From NCBI GenBank assembly GCA_000004985.1, contig GG738874.1: 64,000 nucleotides of DNA; one strand, given 5' to 3'. Source of the DNA: Naegleria gruberi. Lineage: Eukaryota. Numbering within the stretch: the first letter of the stretch is position 1; each line of letters starts with the position of its first letter. The notes under the pieces are model-generated. The model was given only the letters and a program-made list of their open reading frames with translations, had not been told where the DNA came from and made no database searches. Positions 732 through 64,000 of the stretch are shown in pieces. A program made the position numbers and the translations under genes.

Positions 732-3700
732 ATGGAGGAAACACAACAAACACCTCAGCCAGAAGAAGAATCACGAACACAATCATCAAATATTGAGGAA
801 GAAATTTCAACATCAGTCAATGAAGTTGTAAATTCTCAACCATCTGATGAGGCCTCAACAGCACTTCAACAAACTGAAGAACATCAAGATATTTCCAGTA
901 AGGAACAACATGATGATGTTGATCACCAAGAAAACAACAATGAGAAGCCTCAAGAAAATGATACCTTAGTAGTTGAAGAAAATCCAGAAAATCATATGGA
1001 AGAAGAATACACCAGTGTTGGTCATTCTGTCAAAACAACCAATGATGAGAAGGAGGCTATTAGTGAAGAGATTTTAGAAACAACAAATAACGAGTTAATA
1101 TCTATTTCCCAAGCCTTGAATTACACTGCCGAAGGATTACATGAAAGTCATGAATACATTAACACTCTTACAGAACAAATTGAGGCAAAGAATAATGAAA
1201 TCCAGAAAGTAATGGAGGTATTAGAGGAACACAAATCAATTATTACTCAAAAGGATGACGAAATCTCAACAATTACTCAAGAATCCGAAAATACTAAAAA
1301 GTTATTGGGGCAGACAACATCTCAGATGAATACAATTTCCGAGAATTTGGCCAATGCTTTGGAGGAACTTTTAGAATCAGATCTCAAGTTGAAGGGGATT
1401 ACTAAGGAACTAACAGTCTCAAAGGAAGAAATTGAAAATTTGTCCAAAAGCATTTCAGAGAAAGAATCATTGATCGAAGAGCTCAACAATAATCTTGGTT
1501 CAGCAAAGGCAGAATTGGAAGCATCTAAGGAAGATGTTTCTTTAAAGAGTGCTATTATTGAACAATTAACTAGTGAGATTAATGTTGGAAAGGAAGCAAT
1601 TCAAAAATTAGAAGACAATGTCAATGAAAAGAGTCAAGAGGTTGATTCTTTAAGGTTGATTATTGAAGAAAAAGCTTCACTTAATGAACTATTGAAACAA
1701 CAAGTCGATGAAACAAAACAATCTCTTGAAGAAACTTTGAATAATTTAACAAAAGCAAAGGAAGAAATAGAAAGCGTAGAAAATTCTCTTAAGGAAACAA
1801 CTCAAAAGTTAGAAGAAACAAATACGCAACTCACATCATTGTCAAGCCAAGTTGAGCAAGACAAAGATGAGTTAAAACAGATTAGTGAAGAGCTTGAAAC
1901 TGTGAAAGAAAACTGTAGTCAAAAATCAGCTGAACTGGAGAAGACCATTTCAGAACTGAAAGAAACATCTGACAATTTGGAGGATCAAAAGAAAGTGCTT
2001 GAAGAAAAAACTCAAGAATTAACTTCCACAACAGAAGAGCTCTCTAAAACGAAATCATTATTGGAAAGCACTACCACTGAATTCAACGAAAAATTAAAAA
2101 TTGCTTCCGATAGTTTGCAAATAACTACCCAAGAACTCGAAGAAACCAAAGGAAAATTAGAACAAACCCAACAACAATTGGATAAAATGAGCTCTGAATT
2201 GGAAATTAAGACACAGGATCTTTCTCAGGCAATTGAAACTTTAGATCTCACAAATATCGAATTAAGTGAACTCAAAGAAACCATGTCAAATACTACCATT
2301 GAACTTGATAAAACGAAGGAGATTTTAAAGTCCACAAACGAAGAACTTTTGGCAACAAAAGAATCCCTTGAAACAACCAGTGAAGAATTGTCTACAACTA
2401 AAGACACGCTTGCAACAACAACCGAGGAGTTTTCTTTTACAATGGAACAATTAGATAATACTAAAAAAGAACTCTCTGAAACAACCACCAAATTAGAGGA
2501 AACATCTGCTGAATTGGTTTCTATTAAGGAGGATCTTTCCGACACAAGACAAAAGCTTGAATCTACTTGCGGTTTATTGTCTGAAACTCAAACCAAATTA
2601 GAAGAATCTAACAAAAATCTTGAAGATGCAAACTGTACAATCAAAACTACTGAAGATGAATTATCTAGTGTTAAGGGTGAACTTGAATCCACAGCAAAAA
2701 ATCTGGTTGACACCAAGCAAGAGCTTTCAGAAACTATTTCTGACTTGCAACAGACAAAAGAGAGTTTGTCAGAAACTAAGGAAACACTTGCAAGCACTGA
2801 GGATAACCTGCACAAAATAGAGGACGAGTTATCTCAATCAAGAACAACTTTATCAGAGACATCAGAAGAACTTATTGAGACAAAAAATAGGTTGACTGCC
2901 ACCTTGGATGAGCTTTCCACTACCAAAGAAGACCTTAGAAACACAGAAAAAGATCTTTCCCAAAGAACAAGCGATTTGGGAATGACTTCAATGGAATTAA
3001 TAAGCACAAAGGAAGAGCTTACAGAAACAAAACAAACACTCTCTCAAACTTCTGAAAATTTAGAAACTACAAAAACAACATTGGAAGAAACATCTTCCGA
3101 TCTTGAGAAAACAAAAGAAGAACTTGCAAAGAAAACTGAAAATCTGGAAGACACTACCAAAAATCTAGAGAGTACAAAAAGAACATTGGAGGAAACTTGC
3201 AAAGAACTTGAAGCAACAAACAACACACTTCTTAGTACTAGTGAAGAGCTAACTACAACAAAGACTGACCTCGAAAACACAAGGCAAACCCTAGTTGAGA
3301 CATGCTCTAACTTGGAAAACACTAAAGCAAAACTTCAAGATACTGAAATTACACTCACCGAAACAATCAATGTTCTTAATTCAACAAAGCAAGAGTTAGA
3401 TAGTACAAACGAAGAACTCTCAAATACCAAGAATTCTTTGAAAGCCACTGAGCTTGAATTGAGTGATACAAAGGAAAATCTTTCTAAAACTGGTGAAGAA
3501 CTTGTTCAAACTAAATTAACTCTTTCCTCAACTTCTGATGAATTAAGCAACACGAAACAAGCTTTATCTGCAACTACGGAAGATCTCAACAGTACAAGAG
3601 ACGTTCTGAAAAGTACTGAGAATGAGCTTTCTCAAAGAACAAGCGATTTGGGAATGACATCTATGGAATTAATAAGCACAAAGGAAGAGCTTACAGAGAC

Positions 3701-6170
3701 AAAACAAACACTCTCTCAAACCCGCGATACATTAAGATCCACTCAACAGTATTTAGAAGATACTAACACTTCACTGAACTCTGCAAATGAAACCATACGA
3801 ATTACAACAAAAGAACTTGAGAAAACTCAATCCGAACTCGATTTGACAAAGAAAAATCTTGACGTCACAACAACAGAATTACAAGACACAAAGGAGGCAT
3901 TTACCACAACCAAGTCAGATTTAGAGTCAAAACTTTCAGAAACCACTAACCAATTGAATAATACAACTGCCACTCTGAACGAAACTCAAACAACTCTTAC
4001 TCTAACTCAACAAACTCTTTCGTCAATCGAATCAGATTTAAATGGTACTAGAGAAACCCTAAACAAAACAAAGAATAATTTAGATGGCATGACTGACTCT
4101 TACGAATCAACTTTATCTGCTCTCAATCATACAAAACAAGTCTTACAAGAAACTGAAGAAAAGCTATCCGAAACTTGTAAAACTCTTGATGAACGAGTAT
4201 ATGAATTGAGTACTACTTCACAGATTCTTAAAAATACAAGAGACCTTCTTCAAAACACTGAAGAAAAGTTGAAGAGTAAAACTGAGGAATGGGAACTTTT
4301 GTTGGTGGTAAGATCTGAATTGGAGAAGGAACTTGAAGAAATGACCAACAAAAACACCAAAAATGAAGAAGAAATCAAAGAGTTACTCCACATCAAATCT
4401 GATCTCACTGCTGAACGAAATAAGTTGATTGAGAATCTCAACCAAACTACCTCTAATCTGAAGCAAACAGAACACACTCTTGAAGAAACAACTCAAAAAC
4501 TTAACATCACTGAAAATGTTCTTCAAGAAACCTCTATCACCCTTAAAGCAACAACAGAGGATCTGAATTGTAAAAATGAAAGATTGGAGCAAGCAGAAAA
4601 TTCTTTGGAGAGTTTGAGACAAAAATATGACACCTCTGTTAAAGAGTTGAAGGCAGCTCACATTACCATAGATCAAGCAAATGTTTTGGTATTGGAACAA
4701 CAAGAATCCCTCGCAGAAAGGCAGAGAAGCATTGATAAACTTGAGAATACAGTTGTTGAGCTTAATAAGATCATTAGTGAAAGGGATGAAACCATAAAAC
4801 AAAGAGATTCAACAATTAAGAGCCTTGAACAAGTCGTTGCAGAAAAAATAGGAATAATCAACGATAGAGATCAAGAAATAAGTGAAAGAATCGACAACCA
4901 CAACCAATTGTTCGCCGAGAAAACTAATCTTGATAGTGAAATAGCAAACTTGAAGTCTGAATATCAAAAACTGGATGAAATTTGTAATTTTAAGAAAGAA
5001 CAGCTTATCAAATCCCAAGTTATCATTACTAGTTGGATTGAAGAGAATAATGTCAAAGCCAAAACTATCGCACAACTTTACGAAATAGTCAATAAGAAGG
5101 ATTCAGAGATTGAAAATCTTTTCACTTCGGGCAATAAGATCATGGAAGGACTTAGTCTAGAAATTAAACAACTTGAAATCAAATTACAAGAAGCAAACAC
5201 TAATATACAATCATTAACTGATAAGGATAATGAAAATATGGATCAAATTCGTCAACTTTGGGAAAAGATTAAAGACAGAGACAATATAATCGAGGAGCAA
5301 ACAAGAGAAAGCATTAGAGTTGAGGAAGAAAAGAGATCCTCAGATGGTAAATTCAGAAAAGAGATTGAAAGACTCACAATGGTTGAAATGGATCTTGAAT
5401 ATGCTGTAAAGGAACGTGAAGATTCTTTGTTTGATATCAAGAAAGAAAATGAAAATCTTACACAACAACACATTGCCATCGATTTAGAAAACAAACAACT
5501 CAAACAACAATTCCAAATCAAACAAAAGAAAATTGAAGAGCTTAACCTTAAATTGGTTATGGAACAAAAAAGAAATGAAAGAAATGAGAAGGCCAAGTCA
5601 AGCTTTGTTAGAAATATAAGAGATAGAACTCTTGGTGCAACAACAGATGTAGATCAAAAGAATTTGTTGGTCATTCAAGATCTTGGAAAGAAGTATGACG
5701 ACCTCGCTCAAAAATATGAATTGCTTGTTACTGAAAGAAATGATTTAAAGAAATTGTGTAAATCTTTACAATATGCACTTGACAAGAAAGATGGTGAAGA
5801 TGGCAAGAGAATTCAAACATTAGAAAGCAAGTTGCAACAAGAACAAACAGAAAAGAATATCTTCAGAAACGAAAAGAAGGAAATTGAAAAAAAGATGGAA
5901 ACCATTTCAACAGAAAATAAGCAACTCAATTTGAACATGAATAGACTTCACAATACCACCACTCAAATGTTGAGAAAACAAGAAAAGATTACAACTTATT
6001 TGGACAACAATAACGAAGTAGTTTCTTCGTTTGCACTTTCACCAAGAGTTAAACCAACAACAAATATTCCATCAAATGTAGGAGCCAATTCTTTAGTTAG
6101 TCCAAGAAACTTAACTGGTGTCTCTAAACCATCAACACCAAGAATTGCTTCAACCAGATCAACCAAATAA
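732..6170 (+). CDS. giant intronless coiled-coil protein (1812 aa), repetitive T-K-E-E-L / S-x-T-x-x-x-L heptad-like units; myosin-tail/golgin-like, function unknown
   Basis: Single 5.4-kb ORF from ATG to TAA with an acidic N-terminus. There are hundreds of E/L/K/T-rich repeats (…TKEELTETKQTLSQT…) typical of alpha-helical coiled coil. An internal near-identical duplication lies at 2949–3050 vs 3638–3740. Antisense ORFs inside are low-complexity artefacts. Confidence 0.8.
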   Translation: MEETQQTPQPEEESRTQSSNIEEEISTSVNEVVNSQPSDEASTALQQTEEHQDISSKEQHDDVDHQENNNEKPQENDTLVVEENPENHMEEEYTSVGHSVKTTNDEKEAISEEILETTNNELISISQALNYTAEGLHESHEYINTLTEQIEAKNNEIQKVMEVLEEHKSIITQKDDEISTITQESENTKKLLGQTTSQMNTISENLANALEELLESDLKLKGITKELTVSKEEIENLSKSISEKESLIEELNNNLGSAKAELEASKEDVSLKSAIIEQLTSEINVGKEAIQKLEDNVNEKSQEVDSLRLIIEEKASLNELLKQQVDETKQSLEETLNNLTKAKEEIESVENSLKETTQKLEETNTQLTSLSSQVEQDKDELKQISEELETVKENCSQKSAELEKTISELKETSDNLEDQKKVLEEKTQELTSTTEELSKTKSLLESTTTEFNEKLKIASDSLQITTQELEETKGKLEQTQQQLDKMSSELEIKTQDLSQAIETLDLTNIELSELKETMSNTTIELDKTKEILKSTNEELLATKESLETTSEELSTTKDTLATTTEEFSFTMEQLDNTKKELSETTTKLEETSAELVSIKEDLSDTRQKLESTCGLLSETQTKLEESNKNLEDANCTIKTTEDELSSVKGELESTAKNLVDTKQELSETISDLQQTKESLSETKETLASTEDNLHKIEDELSQSRTTLSETSEELIETKNRLTATLDELSTTKEDLRNTEKDLSQRTSDLGMTSMELISTKEELTETKQTLSQTSENLETTKTTLEETSSDLEKTKEELAKKTENLEDTTKNLESTKRTLEETCKELEATNNTLLSTSEELTTTKTDLENTRQTLVETCSNLENTKAKLQDTEITLTETINVLNSTKQELDSTNEELSNTKNSLKATELELSDTKENLSKTGEELVQTKLTLSSTSDELSNTKQALSATTEDLNSTRDVLKSTENELSQRTSDLGMTSMELISTKEELTETKQTLSQTRDTLRSTQQYLEDTNTSLNSANETIRITTKELEKTQSELDLTKKNLDVTTTELQDTKEAFTTTKSDLESKLSETTNQLNNTTATLNETQTTLTLTQQTLSSIESDLNGTRETLNKTKNNLDGMTDSYESTLSALNHTKQVLQETEEKLSETCKTLDERVYELSTTSQILKNTRDLLQNTEEKLKSKTEEWELLLVVRSELEKELEEMTNKNTKNEEEIKELLHIKSDLTAERNKLIENLNQTTSNLKQTEHTLEETTQKLNITENVLQETSITLKATTEDLNCKNERLEQAENSLESLRQKYDTSVKELKAAHITIDQANVLVLEQQESLAERQRSIDKLENTVVELNKIISERDETIKQRDSTIKSLEQVVAEKIGIINDRDQEISERIDNHNQLFAEKTNLDSEIANLKSEYQKLDEICNFKKEQLIKSQVIITSWIEENNVKAKTIAQLYEIVNKKDSEIENLFTSGNKIMEGLSLEIKQLEIKLQEANTNIQSLTDKDNENMDQIRQLWEKIKDRDNIIEEQTRESIRVEEEKRSSDGKFRKEIERLTMVEMDLEYAVKEREDSLFDIKKENENLTQQHIAIDLENKQLKQQFQIKQKKIEELNLKLVMEQKRNERNEKAKSSFVRNIRDRTLGATTDVDQKNLLVIQDLGKKYDDLAQKYELLVTERNDLKKLCKSLQYALDKKDGEDGKRIQTLESKLQQEQTEKNIFRNEKKEIEKKMETISTENKQLNLNMNRLHNTTTQMLRKQEKITTYLDNNNEVVSSFALSPRVKPTTNIPSNVGANSLVSPRNLTGVSKPSTPRIASTRSTK
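3638..3740 (+). repeat. about 100-nt internal segmental duplication of 2949–3050 (about 95% identical) within the coiled-coil CDS
   Basis: The protein segment LSQRTSDLGMTSMELISTKEELTETKQTLSQT occurs twice. The DNA copies differ at only a few positions. Confidence 0.8.
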
Positions 6171-6782: not shown

Positions 6783-7477
6783 TTATTTCTTTTCACGTTT
6801 TTCCCTTTTGATTGTATCTGCTAACATATTTGCTATTTCAGATAATCTCTTATTTAACATTCCACTATTGGACGTTCCACCTAATATTGGAATAGAATAG
6901 GAAAATTGAACAGAGCTTTCTTTTGATTTTTTTAGTAATACATCCGAAGGAGCATTCAAAATTGGATCATAAAATAGTGGTGGAAGATTATCATCATCAA
7001 CTGTTGTTGCTTTCTTTGATGTTTTAGGCTTTGATCCCTTTGTTTTTTTCCTATTATTAAATCTTTCTATANAAATCATCCAATCCTAAANNNNNNNNNN
7101 NNNNNNNNNNNNNNNNNNNNNNNNNNNNNNNNNNNNNNNNGNATATGACACATAATAAACCATTTGATTAACAAGGAATGCAATGTCACTTAATTCCGAA
7201 TTAATATCTGGCAAAACAACATCAGTATCATAGGTTCCTCCAAAATTACAAAAGTTTCATCCTTAGGATCTCCAACAGACATTAAATCATATCGTTTTGT
7301 TGATGTGACTGTATAGAAAGGACTTCTCGGTATTGTTCGTTTTATTAATGTAAGTGAGGCTCTACTATTTTTTTGTGCAGCCAATTGTTGTTGTTGAAGT
7401 TGCTGCTGTTGTTGCAGGAGTAATTGTTGTTTGATTAATGAACTCATTTTTTTATGTAGTTTGTTTTGGCGGTTCAA
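6783..7477 (-). CDS. hypothetical protein interrupted by assembly gap (two ORF pieces, 7190–7477 and 6783–7079, with a poly-Q stretch at the N-terminus)
   Basis: Two minus-strand ORFs flank the N-run at 7091–7140. The upstream piece starts MSSLIKQQLLLQQQQQLQQQQ. Frame continuity across the gap cannot be verified. Confidence 0.3.
7091..7140. other. assembly gap (50 N; additional single N at 7072 and 7142)
   Basis: Literal n characters in the sequence. Confidence 0.95.
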
Positions 7478-7492
7478 AAATTGTAAACCTTT

Positions 7493-9106
7493 TTATTTCC
7501 AATTATCAAAATTGAATTGATCAGAACTGTTAGAATTATTGGAAGTTTCTTTTCTGATTGGAATTATTGATGAAGGTATAATAGAAGAGGAATTGGAAGT
7601 ACTCTTTAAATTTAAATATTTTCCAACTTTGGATTGAGTGGCGGTGGTGGCAGGATTTTGTTCAATTCCAGACGGATTAGAAAACCAATTACCAAACTTT
7701 TCCTTATCTTCATTAGAAACTACTTGTGTTCTTTCTTCCTTATCCTTTTGTCTCTTTTCATCCTCAGTGAATGGATTGTAAAATATAGAGATATTTTCAA
7801 TTTGTACATCTTCCAATGGTTTATCTTCATCATCTACTGGAATATTTTCAATCTTTTGAAGTAATTTTAATCCACCGACTAATTTTCCAAATACTGTATG
7901 CTTATTATCCAAATGAGGAGTTTCCTTGAATGTAATGAAAAATTGGCTAGAATTAGTATTTGGTCCCTTATTAGCCATACTTAGAGTTCCAATTGTGTCA
8001 TGACGAAGTTTTGGTGAGATTTCATCCTTAAACTCACCTCCCCAAATACTCTTCCCTCCTCTACCTGTTCCAGTTGGATCACCTCCTTGAATCATAAATC
8101 CTTTAATGAGTCTATGAAATTTAACTCCATTGTAATATCCTCTTGAACACAAACTCAGGAAATTATCACATGTTTGTGGACAAAGATATGGATAAAGTTC
8201 AACATTTAAATCGCCTAGGTTTGTGTGTAATGATACAAATGATTTCTTATTTTTAAACTCTTTCCTTATTCTATCATATTGTTCCAATTTCTGTTTCCAA
8301 TATTGTTCAGTAATTTTCTCAGTTTCATGACTTTTAGTTCTCACATTCATAACAGAAGAAGTTAATGAAGATGATTTAGTGTCACTACTCAAAACTCCAA
8401 AACTTTGTTCTCCACTTCTCAAAGAAGAGCTTGTAAGTGCCACTTCTTCTTCTCCACTTTCAATTTTCTTTTTCTTTCTCTTTTCCATTTCTTCCAAAAC
8501 TTTTGAAGTTGCACTATTTAAATTAATCTTTTCACTAGCTCTTTCCAAAACAGAATCATCTTCATTCTTTCTTTTTTTATCTCGTTGTTCAATTTCATGT
8601 TGTATTGTTTTAATATCTCTTGGATGTAATGGATCTTGTAATGAAATAATATCTTCCTTTGTAAATTCTGTATGATCCAATAAATCATACATAATTTCTC
8701 CTTCCTTTAAATTTATTCTTTCAATTGCACTATATGCATAGACATTTCCTGTTTTTGCAATACAAACAATATGTGACTGATCGGTAAATATTTTGCGTGA
8801 GACTGGACAGTATGGTTTTCCTTCATCATTGGTTGCAATTTTTAATCTAATAATATCTTTAAAATCCAAAGGATTACCAGTGATTGGATGTATTTTATGT
8901 TTTCTAATCCATGGCATTATATTTAATATATCAAACATGTAACCATCTCTTGTTGTAACTGCTTCTCCTTTAATAGGTTGAAGAGAGAAGGCACAATGAT
9001 TAAAAGCAAGGGAAACTCCTTGTTTTTGTTCTACTTGTGTCTTGTTACGTGATGATAATTCCGATGCTCTGATGAATAAGTGACCATTCTTTTTAGAGTG
9101 AGACAT
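7493..9106 (-). CDS. PPIL2: peptidyl-prolyl cis-trans isomerase-like 2 (U-box + cyclophilin domain; Cyp60/PPIL2 family)
   Basis: 537-aa intronless ORF. The N-terminal U-box-like region (…CPVSRKIFTDQSHIVCIAKTGNVYAYSAIERINLKEG…) is followed by a C-terminal cyclophilin domain (HTNLGDLNVELYPYLCPQTCDNFLSLCSRGYYNGVKFHRLIKGFMIQGGDPTGTGRGGKSIWG…SMANKGPNTNSSQFFIT…HTVFGKLVGG). Confidence 0.85.
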   Translation of the reverse strand: MSHSKKNGHLFIRASELSSRNKTQVEQKQGVSLAFNHCAFSLQPIKGEAVTTRDGYMFDILNIMPWIRKHKIHPITGNPLDFKDIIRLKIATNDEGKPYCPVSRKIFTDQSHIVCIAKTGNVYAYSAIERINLKEGEIMYDLLDHTEFTKEDIISLQDPLHPRDIKTIQHEIEQRDKKRKNEDDSVLERASEKINLNSATSKVLEEMEKRKKKKIESGEEEVALTSSSLRSGEQSFGVLSSDTKSSSLTSSVMNVRTKSHETEKITEQYWKQKLEQYDRIRKEFKNKKSFVSLHTNLGDLNVELYPYLCPQTCDNFLSLCSRGYYNGVKFHRLIKGFMIQGGDPTGTGRGGKSIWGGEFKDEISPKLRHDTIGTLSMANKGPNTNSSQFFITFKETPHLDNKHTVFGKLVGGLKLLQKIENIPVDDEDKPLEDVQIENISIFYNPFTEDEKRQKDKEERTQVVSNEDKEKFGNWFSNPSGIEQNPATTATQSKVGKYLNLKSTSNSSSIIPSSIIPIRKETSNNSNSSDQFNFDNWK

Positions 9107-9307
9107 TTTTTTTGATATTTAAATCTAATAATACTGTTGTTGGAATGAATAAATTGAAGATGAATCATTGGATAAATTTTCAGCTTATTTACTGATAGAA
9201 CATGATAATTGAAAATAATATGTAGGGGTAATCATTATTTATTAAAGAAATCATTGAATTCTCTCTCTAGATAATATATAGTACACTCAACTGTTACAAG
9301 ATCAAAA

Positions 9308-10262
9308 TTATTTCTTGAGCTTTGAACTCACGTTTGGAAGAAGACTGAGAATAACATCAACTGTATTAATTTCAAGTCGTTAATATTATGAATTTTCAAA
9401 GATAATATATTACATACCCATTGGTTCGACTTCCTTCTTTGAAACAAGGTCAAATTCAAAGACAAATAAACAGAAATGCTAAAATAAACATGTAAATATA
9501 TGTGTCACAAACTATTTCACTTACTTTAAAAGCAGTATTCAAGTGAGCTTCTTCACCCAATTTCTTAACTTCTTCAAAGTGAGAGTGATAAATGTGAGCA
9601 TAAACTCTGAACAATCGTTTAAAGATTTGCTTGACTTCAGATTTAAAGTTTGTTGGGAAAGGAACATCTGGAGAAGGTGGGAACAATTGTTCATTGTTAA
9701 CCCTGGATTCAATCCAACCCATCAAAAATTCCATATATTGTGGAGCACTGACACGAATTGGCTTGGTAATGTTATCTTCAGGATTCATCCACAAATATTC
9801 ATATTCTACAAGTTGTGTGTAAACATTCAAAGAAGGAAATAATTATTACATACCAGCACCAGCACACATGACAGGGCATGAAGAAGCAGTACAGAATTCA
9901 GAAATACTTCCGTACAATAAATTGGTTGTATTGAAGAAATCAACAGCTAAATAGATCCATATTATGTATCAAATTTCATCATAAACACTTACTATGGACA
10001 GCTAGTAAATCGTAAATAACAAAAGATCATAATATTACTAGTACTTACCCAACCATTCGTTCAATTCTTCACCTTGTGGGAGTTTAACTGCTTGGCTCAA
10101 ATCACCACTTCCAAGAGTAGCTGTGTTAGAATAAATTTTGTTATTTGACACAATTCAATTAATGATCTTACCTTTAGCTGCTTTGTGTAATTCCTTTCTC
10201 TTTCCTCCGTGAGATTTCTTTGGACGAAAAGTGTTGCTATTCTTGTTTCCGCTATGATTGTA
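9308..10262 (-). CDS. MOB1: MOB1 kinase activator (Mps-one-binder), 6 exons with micro-introns; 5' start codon not located
   Basis: Translated exons match MOB1 end to end. Exon A reads …[25 protein letters not shown]. Exon 2 [24 protein letters not shown] spans about 10047–10124. Exon 3 [31 protein letters not shown] spans about 9846–9950. Exon 4, [94 protein letters not shown], spans about 9531–9806. Exon 5 [20 protein letters not shown] spans about 9424–9486. The terminal exon ends at TAA at 9308. Donors are GTAAGT/GTATGT. No in-frame ATG lies upstream of exon A (a TGA is in frame), so a 5' micro-exon is probably missing from my model. Confidence 0.8.
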
Positions 10263-21173: not shown

Positions 21174-21635
21174 ATGCAATTATTTGTCAAGACACTCACT
21201 GGAAAAACAATCACTTTGGAAGTTGAATCAAATGATTCAATTGAAAATGTCAAGTCAAAGATTCAAGAAAAGGAAGGAATTTCACCAGATCAACAAAGAC
21301 TCATCTTTGGTGGAAAACAATTGGAAGATGGAAGAACTATTAATGATTACAACATTCAAAAAGATTCAACTCTTCATTTGGTGTTGAGATTAAGAGGAGG
21401 AATGCAACTCTTTGTAAAAACCTTAACTGGAAAAACAATTACTATTGAAATGGAAGCGAATGATACTATTGAGAATATGAAACAAAAGATATTTGATAAG
21501 GAAGGCATTCCTTCAGATCAACAACGATTGATTTATGCAGGAAAACAATTAGAAGATGGAAGAACAATTAGTGATTACAACCTTCAAAAGGATTCTACTG
21601 TGCATTTGGTGTTGAGATTGAGAGGAGGTGGTTAA
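21174..21635 (+). CDS. di-ubiquitin-like protein: two tandem ubiquitin-fold repeats, divergent from canonical ubiquitin, ending RLRGGG
   Basis: Repeat 1 is [76 protein letters not shown], differing at 11 of 76 positions from invariant eukaryotic ubiquitin. Repeat 2 is [76 protein letters not shown], differing at 15 of 76 positions. There is a single extra C-terminal G. Confidence 0.8.
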
Positions 21636-25287: not shown

Positions 25288-25357
25288 TCGGGTGTGGTAT
25301 GTGGTAGCATTCCAGATTGTCACTCTGGCGACCCGGGTTCAATTCCCGGCACTCGAG
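25288..25357 (+). tRNA. tRNA-Asp (anticodon GTC), compact D-arm
   Basis: The acceptor TCGGGTG/CACTCGA pairs with one G·U. The anticodon arm is CCAGA-TTGTCAC-TCTGG (GTC). The T-arm is CCGGG-TTCAATT-CCCGG and the discriminator is G. A 3-bp D-stem ATG/CAT is present, and a T5 run lies 6 nt downstream. No scan was run. Confidence 0.55.
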
Positions 25358-57734: not shown

Positions 57735-58853
57735 TTAATTCTTCTTCTTTTGTTGAACATTGATGAAAGCATGATCTGGATGCTTCCAACCTAATAAGCC
57801 TCTCCAAATCCACTTGTACAAGTACGGCAACACAAGATATGGCTGATGACATCAATATGACAATTAAATATTAATAATAATTATCATCATACAGGAAGAA
57901 AGAATTTAAATATTAAATTATTGTTAATAATACACTTACCACAGAGATCAAGCACCAATAAGACCAAATCTCATGGAAAACACCAATACTAACCGAGACA
58001 ACCAAACTAATTAACCATCCACTCAAAACACCAATTCCTAACACTCTATTGGAGATGAACCAATCCTTATCATCATGAACTCTAAAGAAGTGAGGCAATA
58101 CTGTAATAAGCAACCAAGTTCCCCAGTGAGGCAAATAACCCCACAGTTGATGATATGGGAACATCCCTATTATCATTTCAATGATCCAAGAAGTAATAAG
58201 AAGTTATGATAAATTTGGAATCTTAGTAAAACCAATTAATTTGAATAATACTTACAGTACAAGTGATTTGGACCTTGATAGGAACACATTGATGATCCAA
58301 CATTTTGAATTGGAATATTATTCACCCTAGATTCAGTTCCATAACCATCGGAAGTAATTTCAACAGATTTTGGAGAGGTACCAAACTTTGTTAATAATTC
58401 ATTGGCACTCATATGATTAGTATTTGGGCCATGTCCCATCATTTGATTGTAACCCATATACAAGGCAATTGTAGAAATAATAAGACAAATCAGGGATGCA
58501 ACAATGGCAAATCTAAAGACCGATCTAGATTTTAAAGTATGGTTAAGACACCAATAGTTTTGAACCAATGGTTGAATCCAAACTAAAAAGTGAGCAACAA
58601 TGGTTAAATTCTTATTACTTTCACTATTACAGGAATCGACTAAACCATAGTAATATTGGAAAAATTGGAGTGCTTCCATGAGAGCATAAGTCAAGTAGAG
58701 GAACACTTGAGAAAGTTGAGCAACTTTCGATTTAGCAGAAGGCAATCTTCTCAACTGGTCCATGGTCATGATAAAACCAAGACATGAGAAGGTAAACGAG
58801 CTTTTCATAGACCAACACATTTTTTCTTTTATTGAAGTAATAAGCATAATCAT
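57735..58853 (-). CDS. multi-pass membrane protein, 3 exons (58256–58853, 57940–58166, 57735–57842); family unassigned (Frag1/DRAM/Sfk1- or CREST-like possible)
   Basis: Hydrophobic helices run throughout (FLYLTYALMEALQFF, FAIVASLICLIISTIALYMGY, WLLITVLPHFF, LGIGVLSGWLISLVVSVSIGVFHEIW). Splice junctions TACT|GTAAGT…AATAG|GG and GTG|GTAAGTG…CATCAG|CC keep the frame, and the terminal exon ends …GWKHPDHAFINVQQKKKN*. Confidence 0.45.
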
Positions 58854-59337: not shown

Positions 59338-60439
59338 TTAGTTTTTGAAACAATTGAATGAGGAAGCAAGAGCATCATTTCTTCCCAAATTTCCTAATTG
59401 GAAATTATCTTCAATGGTTCTCAAAAGAGAGAAATGGTTATAAGTATTCTTGTCAACTCCTCCAGGTTGAACCATATCACCAATAGCAACAGCATAGATA
59501 TGATTACGGAACATGTAGTCATCTTCATCGAATGTGATGAAAATAAGAGTGCCTTTCATGAATTTTGGATTATTCAATTTAGGTGGCAACCATTGAGCTA
59601 AGTAACTGTACAAATGTTAAATGATTGAACTAGCGGTTGTCAAACTTACTTGTTGGCATAATCGAGTCCAGTATTGTGAGCATCATTATCAATATTTGGA
59701 GTGTAATACATCAAGTTTGGTAAATTTCCAGAAGCAATATCCAAATCCAATTGATCAGAACTGACAATATTCTTACATCTATTTGGATTATTTCTAATAT
59801 TATCAAAGGTCATGAATGGATTGTGTTTTCTATAATACTTCTTATCAGTGCTATATTGAGCAATGAAGCAATTTCCAGTTCCAGAATTTTCCTTTGGATA
59901 ATTTTCTTGATATGATTTCCAAGTCAATCCCTTTAAATTATTTCAGAATGTGAAATATTCCACATCAAAACAACAACATTCGAATAAAAAACTTCAATCA
60001 ATATACAAACCTTTGCTTCCAACAAATCAACAATAGTTGTGGCATTAACATTGACATTACTGTCAGTATTATGTTTAAAATAATCACCAGCAATTTGTGA
60101 TAAATAATTTGGTTGAGAAGGATGAGTAACTCCATAATATTCAGACAACAAGGTTCCAATCTTGGTAGCCACTTGACGGAAATATTCATGCATCATGGTC
60201 AATTCTAATGGTTGATTTTCAAAATTAACAACAAGAATTCTTTCAAAAGTACCAGGCTTTGTTCCATTAGTAGCCTTCACTGATGATGATGATGAAGCAG
60301 CAGCAGAGGCTCCTCTCATCTGAACAGCTCCGTCCACTACCATCATCATCATCATTGCAACCATCAAACAACCAATGATCGCAAAAATAAGTGATTGACG
60401 CATTTTTGGGATGTTTTGCATTTTTTTTTGAATCTTCAT
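59338..60439 (-). CDS. secreted phosphoesterase-family protein (acid phosphatase / non-haemolytic phospholipase C family, HPSQPNY signature), 3 exons: 60011–60439, 59650–59930, 59338–59605
   Basis: A signal peptide (LIFAIIGCLMVAMMMMMVVDGA) is present. The family signature is GVTHPSQPNYLSQIAGDYF, with downstream …KHNPFMTFDNI… and …FITFDEDD…. Introns of 80 and 44 nt carry GTTTGT/GTAAGT donors and phases are consistent. Confidence 0.65.
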
Positions 60440-60854
60440 TTTTGTCCTACATTGATTGGATAATTGAGGTGTAGACTTGAAAATTGTTGATGAAGATATG
60501 ATAGTGGATTAGTTGAGGGTGTTTGATTGAAGAAAATGTTAATATTGTTGTTGGATGGAGGTGGAGGGAAGAGGATTGTTCAAATTTGATGATTTGAAAT
60601 TTGGAAGTATAGATTTTTATATTAATCATTTGCACATTTAGTCTTCAGTTATTGAACTATCGAATGTGAATATATTATTAAATTTTGTAAAGAATTGCAC
60701 TAAGGGTTACACATCATTGAAATGGAATACAAAGTCCGCCCTGATTTCACAAAATTGGTCAACAGTTTTAATTTGGAATTTGTTGACAATTTTTCAATCT
60801 CATTTGGTTTAAGTCTCACACGGGTTCACCATTCAAAAAAATATTCGAAACCCA

Positions 60855-61964
60855 ATGTTCAGGTTTTTGTTGATCTTGACTCTTTTCCTCGTCATCATCC
60901 AACAAGCTTTACTTGTTTCAGCTGATTCTTCTTCCATTTCGTCTATCAGTTTCGTCCCAACAAGAGAAGAAACTCTCAAAGAATACACCTTTCCAACACA
61001 ACAACAACCAACATCATCATCCAACACACCACCATTCTTCACTCTTTCACCAACTTCCCAACAACAATGCTCCTGTTCTCAATGTTATTGCAATAATGGT
61101 GGATCATGTCCAAAATCAATTCCAGCTCTTGGCTTTACAATTCTTGCAGCAGAGGAAAATTGTGGCAACAGAAATCAAGTTCCAAGTATTGGTCTCATCA
61201 ATATTCAATCTACATCCGATAGTAATGGATTTAAATACTATCTTGTCGATGAGAATAATAAGAATAAGGCAATGAATCTTCAATCATTTCAGTATTCATC
61301 TTATAAGAGTGAAGATAGAGCAATGACATGTGTTACTGATAATTTGGCACCTGTTAGATATCCTTCAACATTGCCAGGAAAAGCATATTTACTTGTATCG
61401 AGTACAAATTTAGTATTGAATACTGAAGTGAGATATAATATTCAAATGTCATGTGCAGTGCCAGAAGCCAAAACTGTTAAAGTTACTGCTGTGAGTCGTG
61501 ATGGTTCAAAGTATTATGTTGGTAAAAAGATGTCATTTAGATTTGAATTCAAAAATGTTTATGACAATATTGACACTTGGCAGAAAGGAACTTTGAGTTT
61601 TGGTGGATTTACTGGACAAGTCAATCAAGGAGTGGGTAATCTAGATTTTACACCATCTAGTGAGGGTTCTATTTCTCTATCAGTTCTTTATACTCCAGAT
61701 ACTTCTGTTTATGGAAGTGCAAATACCTATAATACTCCTACCATTCAAGTTTCTCAAGCTCCTGTTCCAGATGCAGTTTGGTCTTTATGGGATTGGATTA
61801 TTAGTAATCAGAGGAATGCAATTTTTGCAATTATCATTTTGTGTGGTATTGTAATTGGTGTCGTATTGACATGTTGCATTTGTACATGTATTATTTGTAG
61901 AAGAAGAAGAAATAGAGCTAATAGTGAGGAGAGAGGAATTAAATTGCAAGATGAGGAGGCATAA
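60855..61964 (+). CDS. type I membrane protein: signal peptide, Cys-containing ectodomain, single TM, short basic cytoplasmic tail (369 aa)
   Basis: The signal peptide is MFRFLLILTLFLVIIQQALLVSADS. The C-terminal TM segment is AIFAIIILCGIVIGVVLTCCICTCIIC, followed by RRRRNRANSEERG. No family recognised. Confidence 0.5.
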   Translation: MFRFLLILTLFLVIIQQALLVSADSSSISSISFVPTREETLKEYTFPTQQQPTSSSNTPPFFTLSPTSQQQCSCSQCYCNNGGSCPKSIPALGFTILAAEENCGNRNQVPSIGLINIQSTSDSNGFKYYLVDENNKNKAMNLQSFQYSSYKSEDRAMTCVTDNLAPVRYPSTLPGKAYLLVSSTNLVLNTEVRYNIQMSCAVPEAKTVKVTAVSRDGSKYYVGKKMSFRFEFKNVYDNIDTWQKGTLSFGGFTGQVNQGVGNLDFTPSSEGSISLSVLYTPDTSVYGSANTYNTPTIQVSQAPVPDAVWSLWDWIISNQRNAIFAIIILCGIVIGVVLTCCICTCIICRRRRNRANSEERGIKLQDEEA

Positions 61965-62093
61965 TAATATGTAGGATGAAATAAAGATATCTATTCGAAT
62001 GTATCTTTGAGATTGTGTTGAACTATTAATAAGTTAAACTTTGACCAAGTTCAATAGTTCTTTACAAAGTTCAAAAAAAAAAACACAAAACGA

Positions 62094-62330
62094 ATGCCTC
62101 AACAATTATTTATTAAAACCTTGACCGGAAAGACACTCTCTGTTGTAGTTGAATCACATGATACAGTTGAGAATATGAAATTTCAACTTGAAGAAAATGA
62201 GGGAATTTGCTGGGATGCTCAACGATTAATTTGGTTAGGAAAGGAGTTGGAGCATGGAGTACCGGTTAGGGATATTAATTTTAGCAAAGAAACTACCTTG
62301 CATTTGGTTTTATCTCTGTGGGGTGGTTAA
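62094..62330 (+). CDS. highly divergent ubiquitin-like protein, single ubiquitin-fold domain ending …LSLWGG
   Basis: [78 protein letters not shown] retains the Ub beta1 ([10 protein letters not shown]), DQQRLI-like, GK and HLVL…GG landmarks. The stop follows directly after GG. Confidence 0.65.
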
Positions 62331-62426
62331 AATGTTGGTGACAATTTTCTATTCGAAACCTTTCCTCCATGAACTTGTTCTTTGTTGTAAACCAATAAAA
62401 AAAATAGCAAACACATCCCATGGTAA

Positions 62427-62663
62427 ATGCCTCACCAATTGTTCATTAAAACTCTGACTGGCAAACTCATCACCATTGCTGTGGATATGAACGATACAGT
62501 GGAAAATGTCAAGTTACAAATTCAAGATCGGGAAGGAATTTATTGGGATCAGCAAAGGTTGATTTATGCTGGAAAGGATATGGAACATGGTACAACAATG
62601 GGACAATACTGTTTTTATAAAGAAATTTGTATTCATTTGGTGTTGAGATTGAGAGGAGGATAA
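62427..62663 (+). CDS. highly divergent ubiquitin-like protein, single ubiquitin-fold domain ending …RLRGG
   Basis: [78 protein letters not shown]. It is a tandem paralog of 62094–62330, 96 nt downstream of it, with the stop right after GG. Confidence 0.65.
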
Positions 62664-62786
62664 GTGTTTTCATCACGAATATGTGGAAGTGCATTAGTTT
62701 TCATTGTGTGAATATTTCAATCAAAGAATTTGGAGAACGAGTTGCTTTTCGAAAATGAAATCATTTGAAATAGTTCATGTTGTAAA

Positions 62787-63452
62787 ATGTTGAATTTGTA
62801 TAAAAAAATGAGTGAATTAGATACAGAGCCGGTAATGATGCCACTGCTCACTCCAATCGGGGAATGTGATTTTGTGATAGAGAAGAGTAAATTGGGGATG
62901 AAGATTATTAATTTATTAGCAGATTTTTCAGAGAGTTTTGTGTATGGAGGATTTGTGAGGGATTTTCTTGTTCGGAGGGAAAAGTTTAATGATTTGGATT
63001 TATTTATTAAAAATTCAAATATTGGTGATGGTGATGATATGGAAAATAATCATAGAGATTCGAAAATTCTAAAAATTAGAAATGAATTTGAGAATAGACT
63101 GAGAGATTGTGAAATGGAAATTGTTTCAATGAAGAATAATAGAGAAACAGTTGACTACTTAATTAAATTTGAAGGGGATTTATTGGAATTGAATGTAATT
63201 TATGAGGATATTGAGAATGATGTTCCAGATTTTGATGTAAATAATTTAAAATTTCAAAATGGAAACATTTCTCAAAGAATTCCTATGGAAAATTGTACAG
63301 TAAATGGAATAGTGGAAAATATTATGAAGAAACAGTGTATTTTATTGGATGAAACATTGGTGAAAGATGAAACTAATTACTACATTAGAAGGAGAATTAA
63401 AAAGATGCAAAAGAAGGGCTGGTTGGTAATGAACATTCCAAACACTAATTAG
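62787..63452 (+). CDS. small stand-alone nucleotidyltransferase-fold protein (CCA-adding/poly(A)-polymerase 'head'-type GGxVRD…DxD motif), 221 aa
   Basis: FVYGGFVRDFLVRREKFNDLDLFI matches the Pol-beta NTase signature of the tRNA-NT/PAP head domain (GGAVRDxLLG…DxD). No recognisable tRNA-NT body domain follows, and the protein is too short for a CCA enzyme. Confidence 0.45.
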   Translation: MLNLYKKMSELDTEPVMMPLLTPIGECDFVIEKSKLGMKIINLLADFSESFVYGGFVRDFLVRREKFNDLDLFIKNSNIGDGDDMENNHRDSKILKIRNEFENRLRDCEMEIVSMKNNRETVDYLIKFEGDLLELNVIYEDIENDVPDFDVNNLKFQNGNISQRIPMENCTVNGIVENIMKKQCILLDETLVKDETNYYIRRRIKKMQKKGWLVMNIPNTN

Positions 63453-63867
63453 AGAGATTGGAAAGAGTGATCTCCTCAAACTAATGTGGTTAGCAATTTA
63501 TTCTTTGACAATTATTTACCATCAAATTGTGTCAAACCAAACAAAACACCTTCAATTTAAAAGCCTTCTAAAAGTACTGTGTCAATTCAATATTAATCAA
63601 CTCTATTTTCAATGAAAACAAATGGTATTTCTTGATGTAAAATTTTGTAATTGTTATTTGAATGGAAAGACAGCTTCCGATTTCCGTTGTTGTAACCAAA
63701 TCTTACTGCCACCTTATTAAAACACGTGTTTAAAACATTGTTAGGTGCAACATTGAGATGAACATTTATTCGATTACTTTGAAGAAATTCAAAAGTTCCC
63801 AAAACTAATTTAAAAATTCATTATTGACTAAAAAAAATAAACACCAAGTTCCCATTCTGAAAAAAAA

Positions 63868-64000
63868 ATGCCAGAAAATAGTATTGATAGCACTCGTCTT
63901 GTTACCCTTCTCTTGGATGACTTTAATGATGAGAACAAGAATAATTATTTATTTTCCAAATTGAAGGAAACAATGCAGAGAAAACTTTTATTGTCAACCG
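63868..64000 (+). CDS. 5' end of a gene running off the window (MPENSIDSTRLVTLLLDDFNDENKNNYLFSKLKETMQRKLLLST…)
   Basis: The ATG at 63868 is preceded by an A-run. It is open to the window end. Confidence 0.25.
   Translation, partial: MPENSIDSTRLVTLLLDDFNDENKNNYLFSKLKETMQRKLLLST

Follow-up and report, generated by a model that had tools for sequence, protein, structure and literature searches.

Ubiquitin sensu stricto is usually at least 95% identical across eukaryotes and is made as a fusion or as a poly-precursor, and its recognition by the ubiquitin-activating enzyme (E1) relies on Arg42, Arg54 and Arg72. Here, we analyzed a compact locus of Naegleria gruberi (assembly GCA_000004985.1, contig GG738874.1) near the end of a 64,000-nt stretch of one strand (the window), in which two genes for ubiquitin-like proteins (UBLs), UBL1 and UBL2, are followed by a gene for a nucleotidyltransferase (NTase). 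With OASL and the ISG15–OAS axis and with the bacterial CBASS and Bil systems, the locus shares only the pairing of a Pol-beta NTase with ubiquitin-like proteins. Among the known systems closest to the NTase itself are the class II bacterial poly(A) polymerases (PAPs) and CCA-adding enzymes (PF01743 head; PDB 3aql, 3h37 and 1miv). A further described family is Pandoravirus 'cluster 7', in which a class II NTase head is fused to a BTB domain (bioRxiv 10.1101/2023.12.02.569716). The cluster 7 proteins keep motif A, have 'DFD' in place of RRD and, about 15 residues before it, carry Gln where the third carboxylate would be expected. The authors propose that these proteins act in tRNA maturation and refer to evidence that the two carboxylates of motif A are sufficient for class II CCA enzymes (bioRxiv 10.1101/2023.12.02.569716).

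We consider it probable that the locus comprises three separate intronless genes of known kinds that are specific to the N. gruberi lineage, and that the adjacency of the UBL and NTase genes is lineage-specific and not of the OAS/cGAS/CBASS type. UBL1 and UBL2 would then be old tandem duplicates of a free ubiquitin variant, translated with the Gly-Gly already exposed. The NTase would most likely add nucleotides to an RNA 3' end without a template and in a metal-dependent manner; failing that, it would at least bind NTP or RNA. Its substrate recognition would be supplied in trans in N. gruberi, whereas relatives have helicase, KH and OB modules in cis for this purpose; in the viral relatives, the NTase domain is coupled to ubiquitin-ligase (E3) modules (RING, and F-box or BTB by annotation or literature). 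Co-regulation may explain the adjacency, as may a real functional link to ubiquitin-type conjugation.

The three same-strand open reading frames (ORFs) proposed in the initial annotation were confirmed on the + strand. UBL1 (62094-62330) and UBL2 (62427-62663) each encode 78 aa, with the N-termini MPQQ and MPHQ, and the sequence reads LSLWGG-TAA and LRLRGG-TAA at their ends, in agreement with the proposal of free-standing GG-stop genes. The Gly-Gly is exposed directly before the stop, as in type I (conjugatable) UBLs, and precursor processing is therefore not needed. Each gene starts with a separate ATG and ends in a separate stop, and the 78-aa UBL2 is identical to the annotated 'predicted protein' XP_002676015.1 (NAEGRDRAFT_34389); neither UBL is therefore the N-terminal exon of a larger gene. 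The exact sequence of UBL1 was not found in a collection of 15 billion proteins, and UBL1 was also missing from the profile-search matches in which it would have ranked first; it is probably an unannotated gene missed by the N. gruberi annotation. The NTase gene (62787-63452) encodes 221 aa, predicted to form a stand-alone head, with part of a neck, of class II (CCA-adding/poly(A)-polymerase type). Its public model (NAEGRDRAFT_80093; UniRef name 'Poly A polymerase head domain-') begins only at Met8 (62808), which leaves 214 aa.

Both UBLs matched the Pfam ubiquitin family PF00240 (57.6 bits for UBL1 and 66.6 bits for UBL2; cut-off 25.4), covering positions 1-70 and 1-72 of the 72-position profile, and the closest PDB match of both by phmmer was ubiquitin itself (E about 1e-23). 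Global alignment gave identities to ubiquitin of 57% for UBL1 and 63% for UBL2, above the 35-45% reported in the initial annotation, and 56% between the two. Identity to NEDD8 was 42% and 46%, respectively, and position 72 is Ser in UBL1 and Arg in UBL2; NEDD8 was rejected because both proteins are closer to ubiquitin and do not have the Ala72 hallmark. Ubiquitin sensu stricto was likewise rejected for both on the basis of their identities and of their single ORFs ending in GG-stop. A tandem UBL of the ISG15/FAT10 type is not consistent with two ORFs that lie 96 bp apart and have separate start and stop codons. A spliced di-UBL was also considered; the one candidate GT...AG pair between UBL1 and UBL2, checked by eye, does not join the frames.

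Both UBLs have a two-residue N-terminal insert (MPQQ or MPHQ versus MQ), which shifts their numbering by two. The alignment shows that the equivalents of K6, K11, K27, K48 (K50) and K63 (K65) are kept in both, and the only lysines lost are K29 (Gln in both) and K33 (Asn in UBL1 and Arg in UBL2). The initial annotation had assigned K48 to the second UBL only and considered K63 lost in both; this misreading is due to raw numbering that ignored the insert. The hydrophobic core positions are all kept, as is the L8/I44/H68/V70 patch. Thus, UBL1 and UBL2 share with ubiquitin and its protist variants the fold family, the I44 patch, these five lysines and the C-terminal GG. In contrast to canonical ubiquitin, which is near-invariant and derived from fusions or poly-precursors, they are single free GG-stop genes with the insert, about 40% substitutions, distinctive Trp and His surface residues and, in UBL1, the LSLWGG tail. 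The derived residues common to both are Trp at ubiquitin position 38, His at ubiquitin position 52 and the MPxQ N-terminus, and these shared surface residues point to a specialised partner surface. Two metagenomic ubiquitins (P0076 and P0044) also begin with MPQQ or MPYQ and are otherwise near-canonical; the insert may be older than the divergence of UBL1 and UBL2 and may have arisen in some protist lineage.

The two proteins differ at the residues used for E1 recognition. UBL2 keeps R42, R72 and R74 and the full LRLRGG tail, and the ordinary ubiquitin E1 (Uba1) most likely activates it for conjugation as a ubiquitin variant. In UBL1, Arg54 is replaced by Val, Arg72 by Ser and Arg74 by Trp, and only R42 of R42/R72/R74 is kept. 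As a result of these losses, weakened recognition by Uba1 is expected, and UBL1 probably uses another activator or acts non-covalently.

A comparison of the two coding sequences gave a pS of 0.78, which is saturated, and a pN of 0.27, and both 78-codon frames are intact. Saturated synonymous divergence combined with restrained non-synonymous divergence indicates an old duplication with selection on both copies, and we therefore regard UBL1 and UBL2, as judged from their codons, as old tandem duplicates under purifying selection. Among 5.8 billion clusters, no protein surpassed generic ubiquitin in its similarity to them (about 60% identity at most), and giant-virus ubiquitins, at 56-60% identity, are no closer than cellular ubiquitin. 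Since no closer relative than ubiquitin, cellular or viral, was found, the UBL pair is considered to be lineage-specific. Decay of the locus, in which one or more ORFs would be pseudogenes or unexpressed duplicates, or the NTase a truncated CCA-adding enzyme, is very improbable in our judgement. Decay would suit an unannotated UBL1 without Arg72 and Arg74; however, all three frames are intact, the hydrophobic core is conserved, and the divergence of the UBL pair is that of selected copies.

A third ubiquitin-family gene is located in the same window: an ORF at 21174-21635 (+) encodes a 153-aa variant di-ubiquitin that ends in RGGG, with identities to ubiquitin of 86% and 82% for its two repeats. 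Similar odd N. gruberi models (P0040 and P0049) are found on other scaffolds. These models suggest that the ubiquitin gene family of N. gruberi has expanded and is diverging, and the third gene means that ubiquitin-family genes are locally not rare.

The NTase was weakly matched by the available domain models. Its match to Pfam DUF5769 (E 4.6e-4, 20.4 bits) is below the cut-off of 26.1 and covers only the C-terminal 28 residues, and its match to the PolyA_pol head PF01743 (E 0.008, 17.0 bits) is below the cut-off of 23; PF01743 matched 5 of the 16 NTase-family cores, always weakly. PHROGs gave one weak match to a 'nucleotidyltransferase' family (E 7.8e-4). A phmmer search of the PDB with the lone NTase sequence returned only TRPA1 matches, which were judged spurious.

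The fold was evaluated by structure prediction of 62787-63452, a test that the initial annotation had proposed. A single-sequence AlphaFold2 model (pLDDT 44) was discarded in favor of a model based on the family alignment, which was confident (pLDDT 83, pTM 0.79). In the fold comparison with this model, the CCA-adding enzymes 3h37 (10.5), 4wby (10.2), 3wfo (9.7), 9kma (9.0) and 1miv (8.7) were found, and OAS1 (8.1), a cGAS-like receptor (7.1) and CdnE (6.6-6.8) ranked below them; the head-domain fold is closest to class II enzymes. The sequence contains motif A as G54G55xxR58D59...D69xD71 (VYGGFVRD...FNDLDLF), that is, the Pol-beta superfamily motif hG[GS]x9-13Dh[DE]h on the correct fold. A motif-B-like D148-F-D150-VNNL, preceded by P, stands in place of RRD, and the C-terminus contains R203...K210-G-W212. 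When the family profile was compared with E. coli PAP, GGxVRD...DxD fell on motif A and DFDVNNL on RRDFTINSL (motif B). The protein ends at residue 221, without the tRNA-binding body and tail, and the EDxxR motif was not seen. The model thus supports a genuine Pol-beta-fold, class II-type head plus part of the neck. Of the class proposed in the initial annotation, the minimal Pol-beta domain of the CCA/poly(A)-polymerase kind without body or tail was retained, and the OAS fold was not. An assignment to OAS, cGAS or CD-NTases was rejected on the basis of the class II fold and because PADLOC gave no match for the NTase.

Catalytic competence of the NTase is plausible but uncertain. The third acidic residue of the family, on the 'xDxV' strand, is Asp or Glu in 19 of 23 members, Ser in P0010 and Gln in P0032, and it is Asn135 in the N. 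gruberi protein. E112 lies on a strand aligned with the EVATFR strand of E. coli PAP and is not conserved in the family. Compared by description only, the Pandoravirus cluster 7 proteins resemble the NTase in motif A, in DFD and in a non-acidic residue (Gln, or Asn135 here) about 13-15 residues before DFD. Given this Gln and the evidence cited for class II CCA enzymes, catalysis by the N. gruberi NTase is plausible. The Pandoravirus proteins are otherwise different, being viral proteins of about 900 aa with an N-terminal BTB and a further C-terminal domain, whereas the NTase is cellular and stand-alone, with no BTB.

For decay, the NTase also offers a deviation at a conserved acidic residue and scores below the Pfam cut-offs. 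Nevertheless, other family members and the conserved Pandoravirus family also have a non-acidic residue at the position of Asn135. A truncated housekeeping CCA enzyme, which would have made the ORF a pseudogene, was rejected because the NTase is only 13-18% identical to CCA and PAP enzymes and is similar over its full length, including the C-terminal R...KGW motif, to domains of similar size conserved across the family. The NTase is distinguished from class II PAP/CCA enzymes by its 221-aa length, the missing body and tail, (P)DFD in place of RRD, and this C-terminal motif.

A word-indexed homologue search with the NTase returned only the self-match. An exhaustive phmmer search over 1.84 billion representatives detected 13 distant homologues (26-39% identity), and a subsequent profile search added 10. 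G54, G55, R58, D59, D69, D71, D148 and R203 are invariant across the family, and K-G-W is conserved near the C-terminus; the N. gruberi protein has all four family motifs in order (GGxVRD..DxD..DFDVNNL..R..KGW) in a domain of about 170-200 aa. P0006, at 39% identity the closest homologue, lies with Ras GTPase genes on a eukaryotic contig (L003) and passes the DUF5769 cut-off (29.3 bits vs 26.1), which indicates that the relationship is real, though the DUF5769 model covers the N. gruberi NTase poorly. The family is sparse and experimentally uncharacterised, with members mainly in giant viruses and also in a few protists, and our literature search returned nothing specific on DUF5769, the locus tags or NTase plus RING in Mimiviridae.

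The domain is repeatedly fused to other modules. A C-terminal RING above the Pfam cut-off was detected in P0016, P0018, P0026, P0027 and P0029, and a weak one in P0014. Structural relatives in BFVD are mostly from giant viruses (Cedratvirus, Moumouvirus, Hokovirus, Klosneuvirus, Fadolivirus, Pithovirus and Bodo saltans virus). RING-type, F-box or ankyrin annotations are attached to several of them, and the matches include RING-type proteins of Klosneuvirus and Fadolivirus; stand-alone phage proteins of small size, named 'poly A polymerase head domain', were also found. The giant-virus NTase-RING/DUF5769 proteins share a homologous core with the NTase (phmmer E 1e-5 to 1e-9), which in N. gruberi differs by having no RING, a DUF5769 score below the cut-off and a cellular genomic context. 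In protists, the domain is also found as the C-terminal part of RNA-handling proteins: P0030 combines OB_NTP_bind, KH and the NTase domain, and a protein of >1,900 aa encoded on a eukaryotic contig (L002, 15700-21188, +) has Macro and DEAD-helicase domains with the NTase domain at its C-terminus. These fusions are suggestive of RNA surveillance or conflict systems, and RNA-directed NTase activity is inferred from them together with the fold class.

Family members are found on contigs of both viral and cellular character. One giant-virus-like contig (L004) contains Rpb5, ribonucleotide reductase small subunit and WLM genes together with a tandem array of three NTase-RING paralogues (6946-10135, +). 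The third paralogue of this array has lost GG, RD and DxD and kept its RING, and it is probably catalytically dead. The same contig encodes a ubiquitin gene truncated before the LRLRGG tail (3890-4102, -; ending ...LHLE) and a small RING protein (5086-5415, +). Two more giant-virus-like contigs contain eIF-1a, cupredoxin and UFD1 genes (L006) and Erv1 and RecQ genes (L008). A scan of viral contigs led by the N. gruberi NTase confirmed none, and a viral-centred alignment yielded 4 loci; L014-L017 are IMG/VR contigs, and the NTase ORFs of L014 and L016 have a C-terminal RING motif. The giant-virus-like L018 (22% GC) encodes two proteins, each with a degenerate and an intact NTase copy. Their genes are adjacent (466-2535 and 2635-4407, +), the N-terminal copy reads YGDFVKD or YGNIVKD and the C-terminal copy YGGFVRD...DID, and the arrangement resembles a pseudoenzyme-enzyme pair. 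Among the eukaryotic contigs, L002 contains PTEN, bromodomain and BUB1 genes and L019 (64% GC) has an NTase gene split by introns; a foraminiferan transcriptome supplied one more member. Close to the L002 homologue, a 78-aa gene that at first looked like a UBL proved to be a PTEN exon.

The NTase gene, or possibly the whole trio, could be the remnant of a giant-virus insertion or transfer, for example from a Klosneuvirinae-like virus, although we consider this quite unlikely. The best BFVD relatives are viral (Cedratvirus, Moumouvirus, Hokovirus and Klosneuvirus), most members with a readable context lie on giant-virus contigs, and the protein collection contained no homologue from other Naegleria species. 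A viral origin would also be consistent with the weak DUF5769 match of the NTase, the DUF5765 match of a nearby gene and the reported isolation of a Klosneuvirinae virus that infects Naegleria (PMC11043551). However, the locus does not stand out from the remainder of the window in GC content (0.31-0.34), and it is flanked by ordinary cellular genes (kinase, SacI phosphatase, ribosomal protein L18A and a leucine-rich repeat (LRR) protein). The closest homologue and several others are on eukaryotic contigs with introns and cellular genes, and cellular ubiquitin is at least as close to the UBLs as the viral ubiquitins are. The neighbor-joining distance tree of the family is star-like, with the N. 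gruberi protein pairing only with P0006, and thus gives no direction for virus-host transfer.

To evaluate the adjacency, we compared 12 other NTase loci, with flanks of 2.7-10 kb on each side and less at contig ends. In 11 of them, including the locus of P0006, the flanks contain no ubiquitin-family ORF; the sole exception is the truncated ubiquitin without GG on L004, 4 kb away. The UBL-UBL-NTase arrangement was found in none of the 12. The initial annotation had proposed a lineage-specific conjugation or signalling module; the locus is indeed lineage-specific, and a conserved UBL-NTase module has no support, with a ubiquitin-family ORF at one of the 12 other loci. A functional module is possible but unproven.

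In a dedicated module, the NTase and UBLs would couple an RNA or nucleotide signal to UBL conjugation, or the NTase would nucleotidylate the UBLs or their targets, in stress or giant-virus defence. We regard this as unlikely. The three genes adjoin on the same strand, separated by spacers of only 96 bp (62331-62426, +) and 123 bp (62664-62786, +), and the derived surface residues common to both UBLs are kept under selection. The NTase family is fused to E3-ligase modules, namely RING (seen here in no fewer than 5 database members as well as in additional viral ORFs), F-box (in annotated structural relatives) and BTB (in Pandoraviruses, from the literature), and on L004 the ubiquitin gene and extra RING genes lie within 4 kb of the NTase-RING array. 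An indirect link of the NTase family to the ubiquitin system therefore does exist through the fusions of its relatives. Against a dedicated module, the adjacency is not conserved and its one partial parallel is distant and truncated. RING, F-box, BTB and ankyrin domains are promiscuous fusion partners in giant viruses, so such fusions are weak evidence, and the other ubiquitin-family gene of the window raises the chance of accidental adjacency. No E1, conjugating enzyme (E2), E3 or JAB/deubiquitinase (DUB) gene was found in the 16 kb upstream of the locus, in a neighbour survey that extended up to the window end at 64000.

This also bears on the analogies with OASL, the ISG15–OAS axis and CBASS drawn in the initial annotation, which did not hold: the fold is class II, PADLOC gave no match for the NTase or UBL1, and the proposed search for partner E1/E2 genes found none upstream. 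A CBASS/Bil operon was rejected because the 16 kb upstream contain no E1/E2 (Cap2-like) or JAB/DUB gene and because the one PADLOC match of UBL2, to a DpdH model, is weak (E 0.004). Unlike in OASL, UBL1 and UBL2 are separate genes fused neither to the NTase nor to each other. In a more specific version, the minimal class II NTase domain would be a dedicated partner of ubiquitin-type conjugation, joined in cis to E3 modules (RING, F-box, BTB) in giant viruses and acting in trans with two private, pre-processed UBLs in N. gruberi. This version, which would unite RNA or nucleotide sensing with UBL conjugation, perhaps in an arms race with Naegleria-infecting giant viruses, appears doubtful to us. 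To our knowledge, a coupling of nucleotidyl transfer with ubiquitin-like tagging has not been described before.

Several points weigh against three separate genes with a merely lineage-specific adjacency. The very short spacers could mean co-transcription, which would favor a functional module, and partner genes may lie beyond 64000. UBL1 could be untranscribed, and the predicted use of E1 by the UBLs relies on knowledge of Arg42/54/72 in ubiquitin. With Asn135 where 19 of 23 members have Asp or Glu, the NTase may be a weakened or purely binding module, and its presumed RNA substrate is derived only from the fold class and the domain fusions.

The two spacers were read from the sequence. In the one between UBL1 and UBL2, an A-run precedes a CACA-type element; the same pair also occurs upstream of UBL1 and is a putative promoter. 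Rfam detected no RNA family in 60000-64000, which includes both spacers. The 16 kb upstream encode the kinase, the SacI phosphatase, the LRR protein, ribosomal protein L18A, a DUF5765 protein and a membrane protein with a transmembrane segment (60855-61964), an exact match to XP_002676014.1; an ORF at 59933-60439 had no Pfam match. The DUF5765 protein is encoded by a 205-aa ORF at 58236-58853 (-) that scores above the Pfam cut-off (42.6 bits, E 7e-11) and is the second match to a domain of unknown function less than 5 kb from the NTase gene, next to the weak DUF5769 match of the NTase itself. A tRNA-Asp (GTC) gene lies between protein-coding genes at 25288-25357 (+).

In summary, the locus yields one unannotated gene, UBL1, and a UBL pair that clearly illustrates how ubiquitin, near-frozen as a rule, can be duplicated and, under selection, diverge into variants that are free and independent of processing. 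Cooperation of the UBLs with the NTase would connect nucleotide transfer to ubiquitin-like conjugation in a way new for eukaryotes; without it, the locus would be an ordinary lineage-specific neighbourhood. The NTase provides a cellular foothold for an uncharacterised family that is expanded in giant viruses and repeatedly fused to ubiquitin-ligase modules, and this repeated coupling is the most interesting lead. N. gruberi is culturable and has a known giant virus (PMC11043551), and it may thus serve as a host system for finding the function of the viral NTase family.

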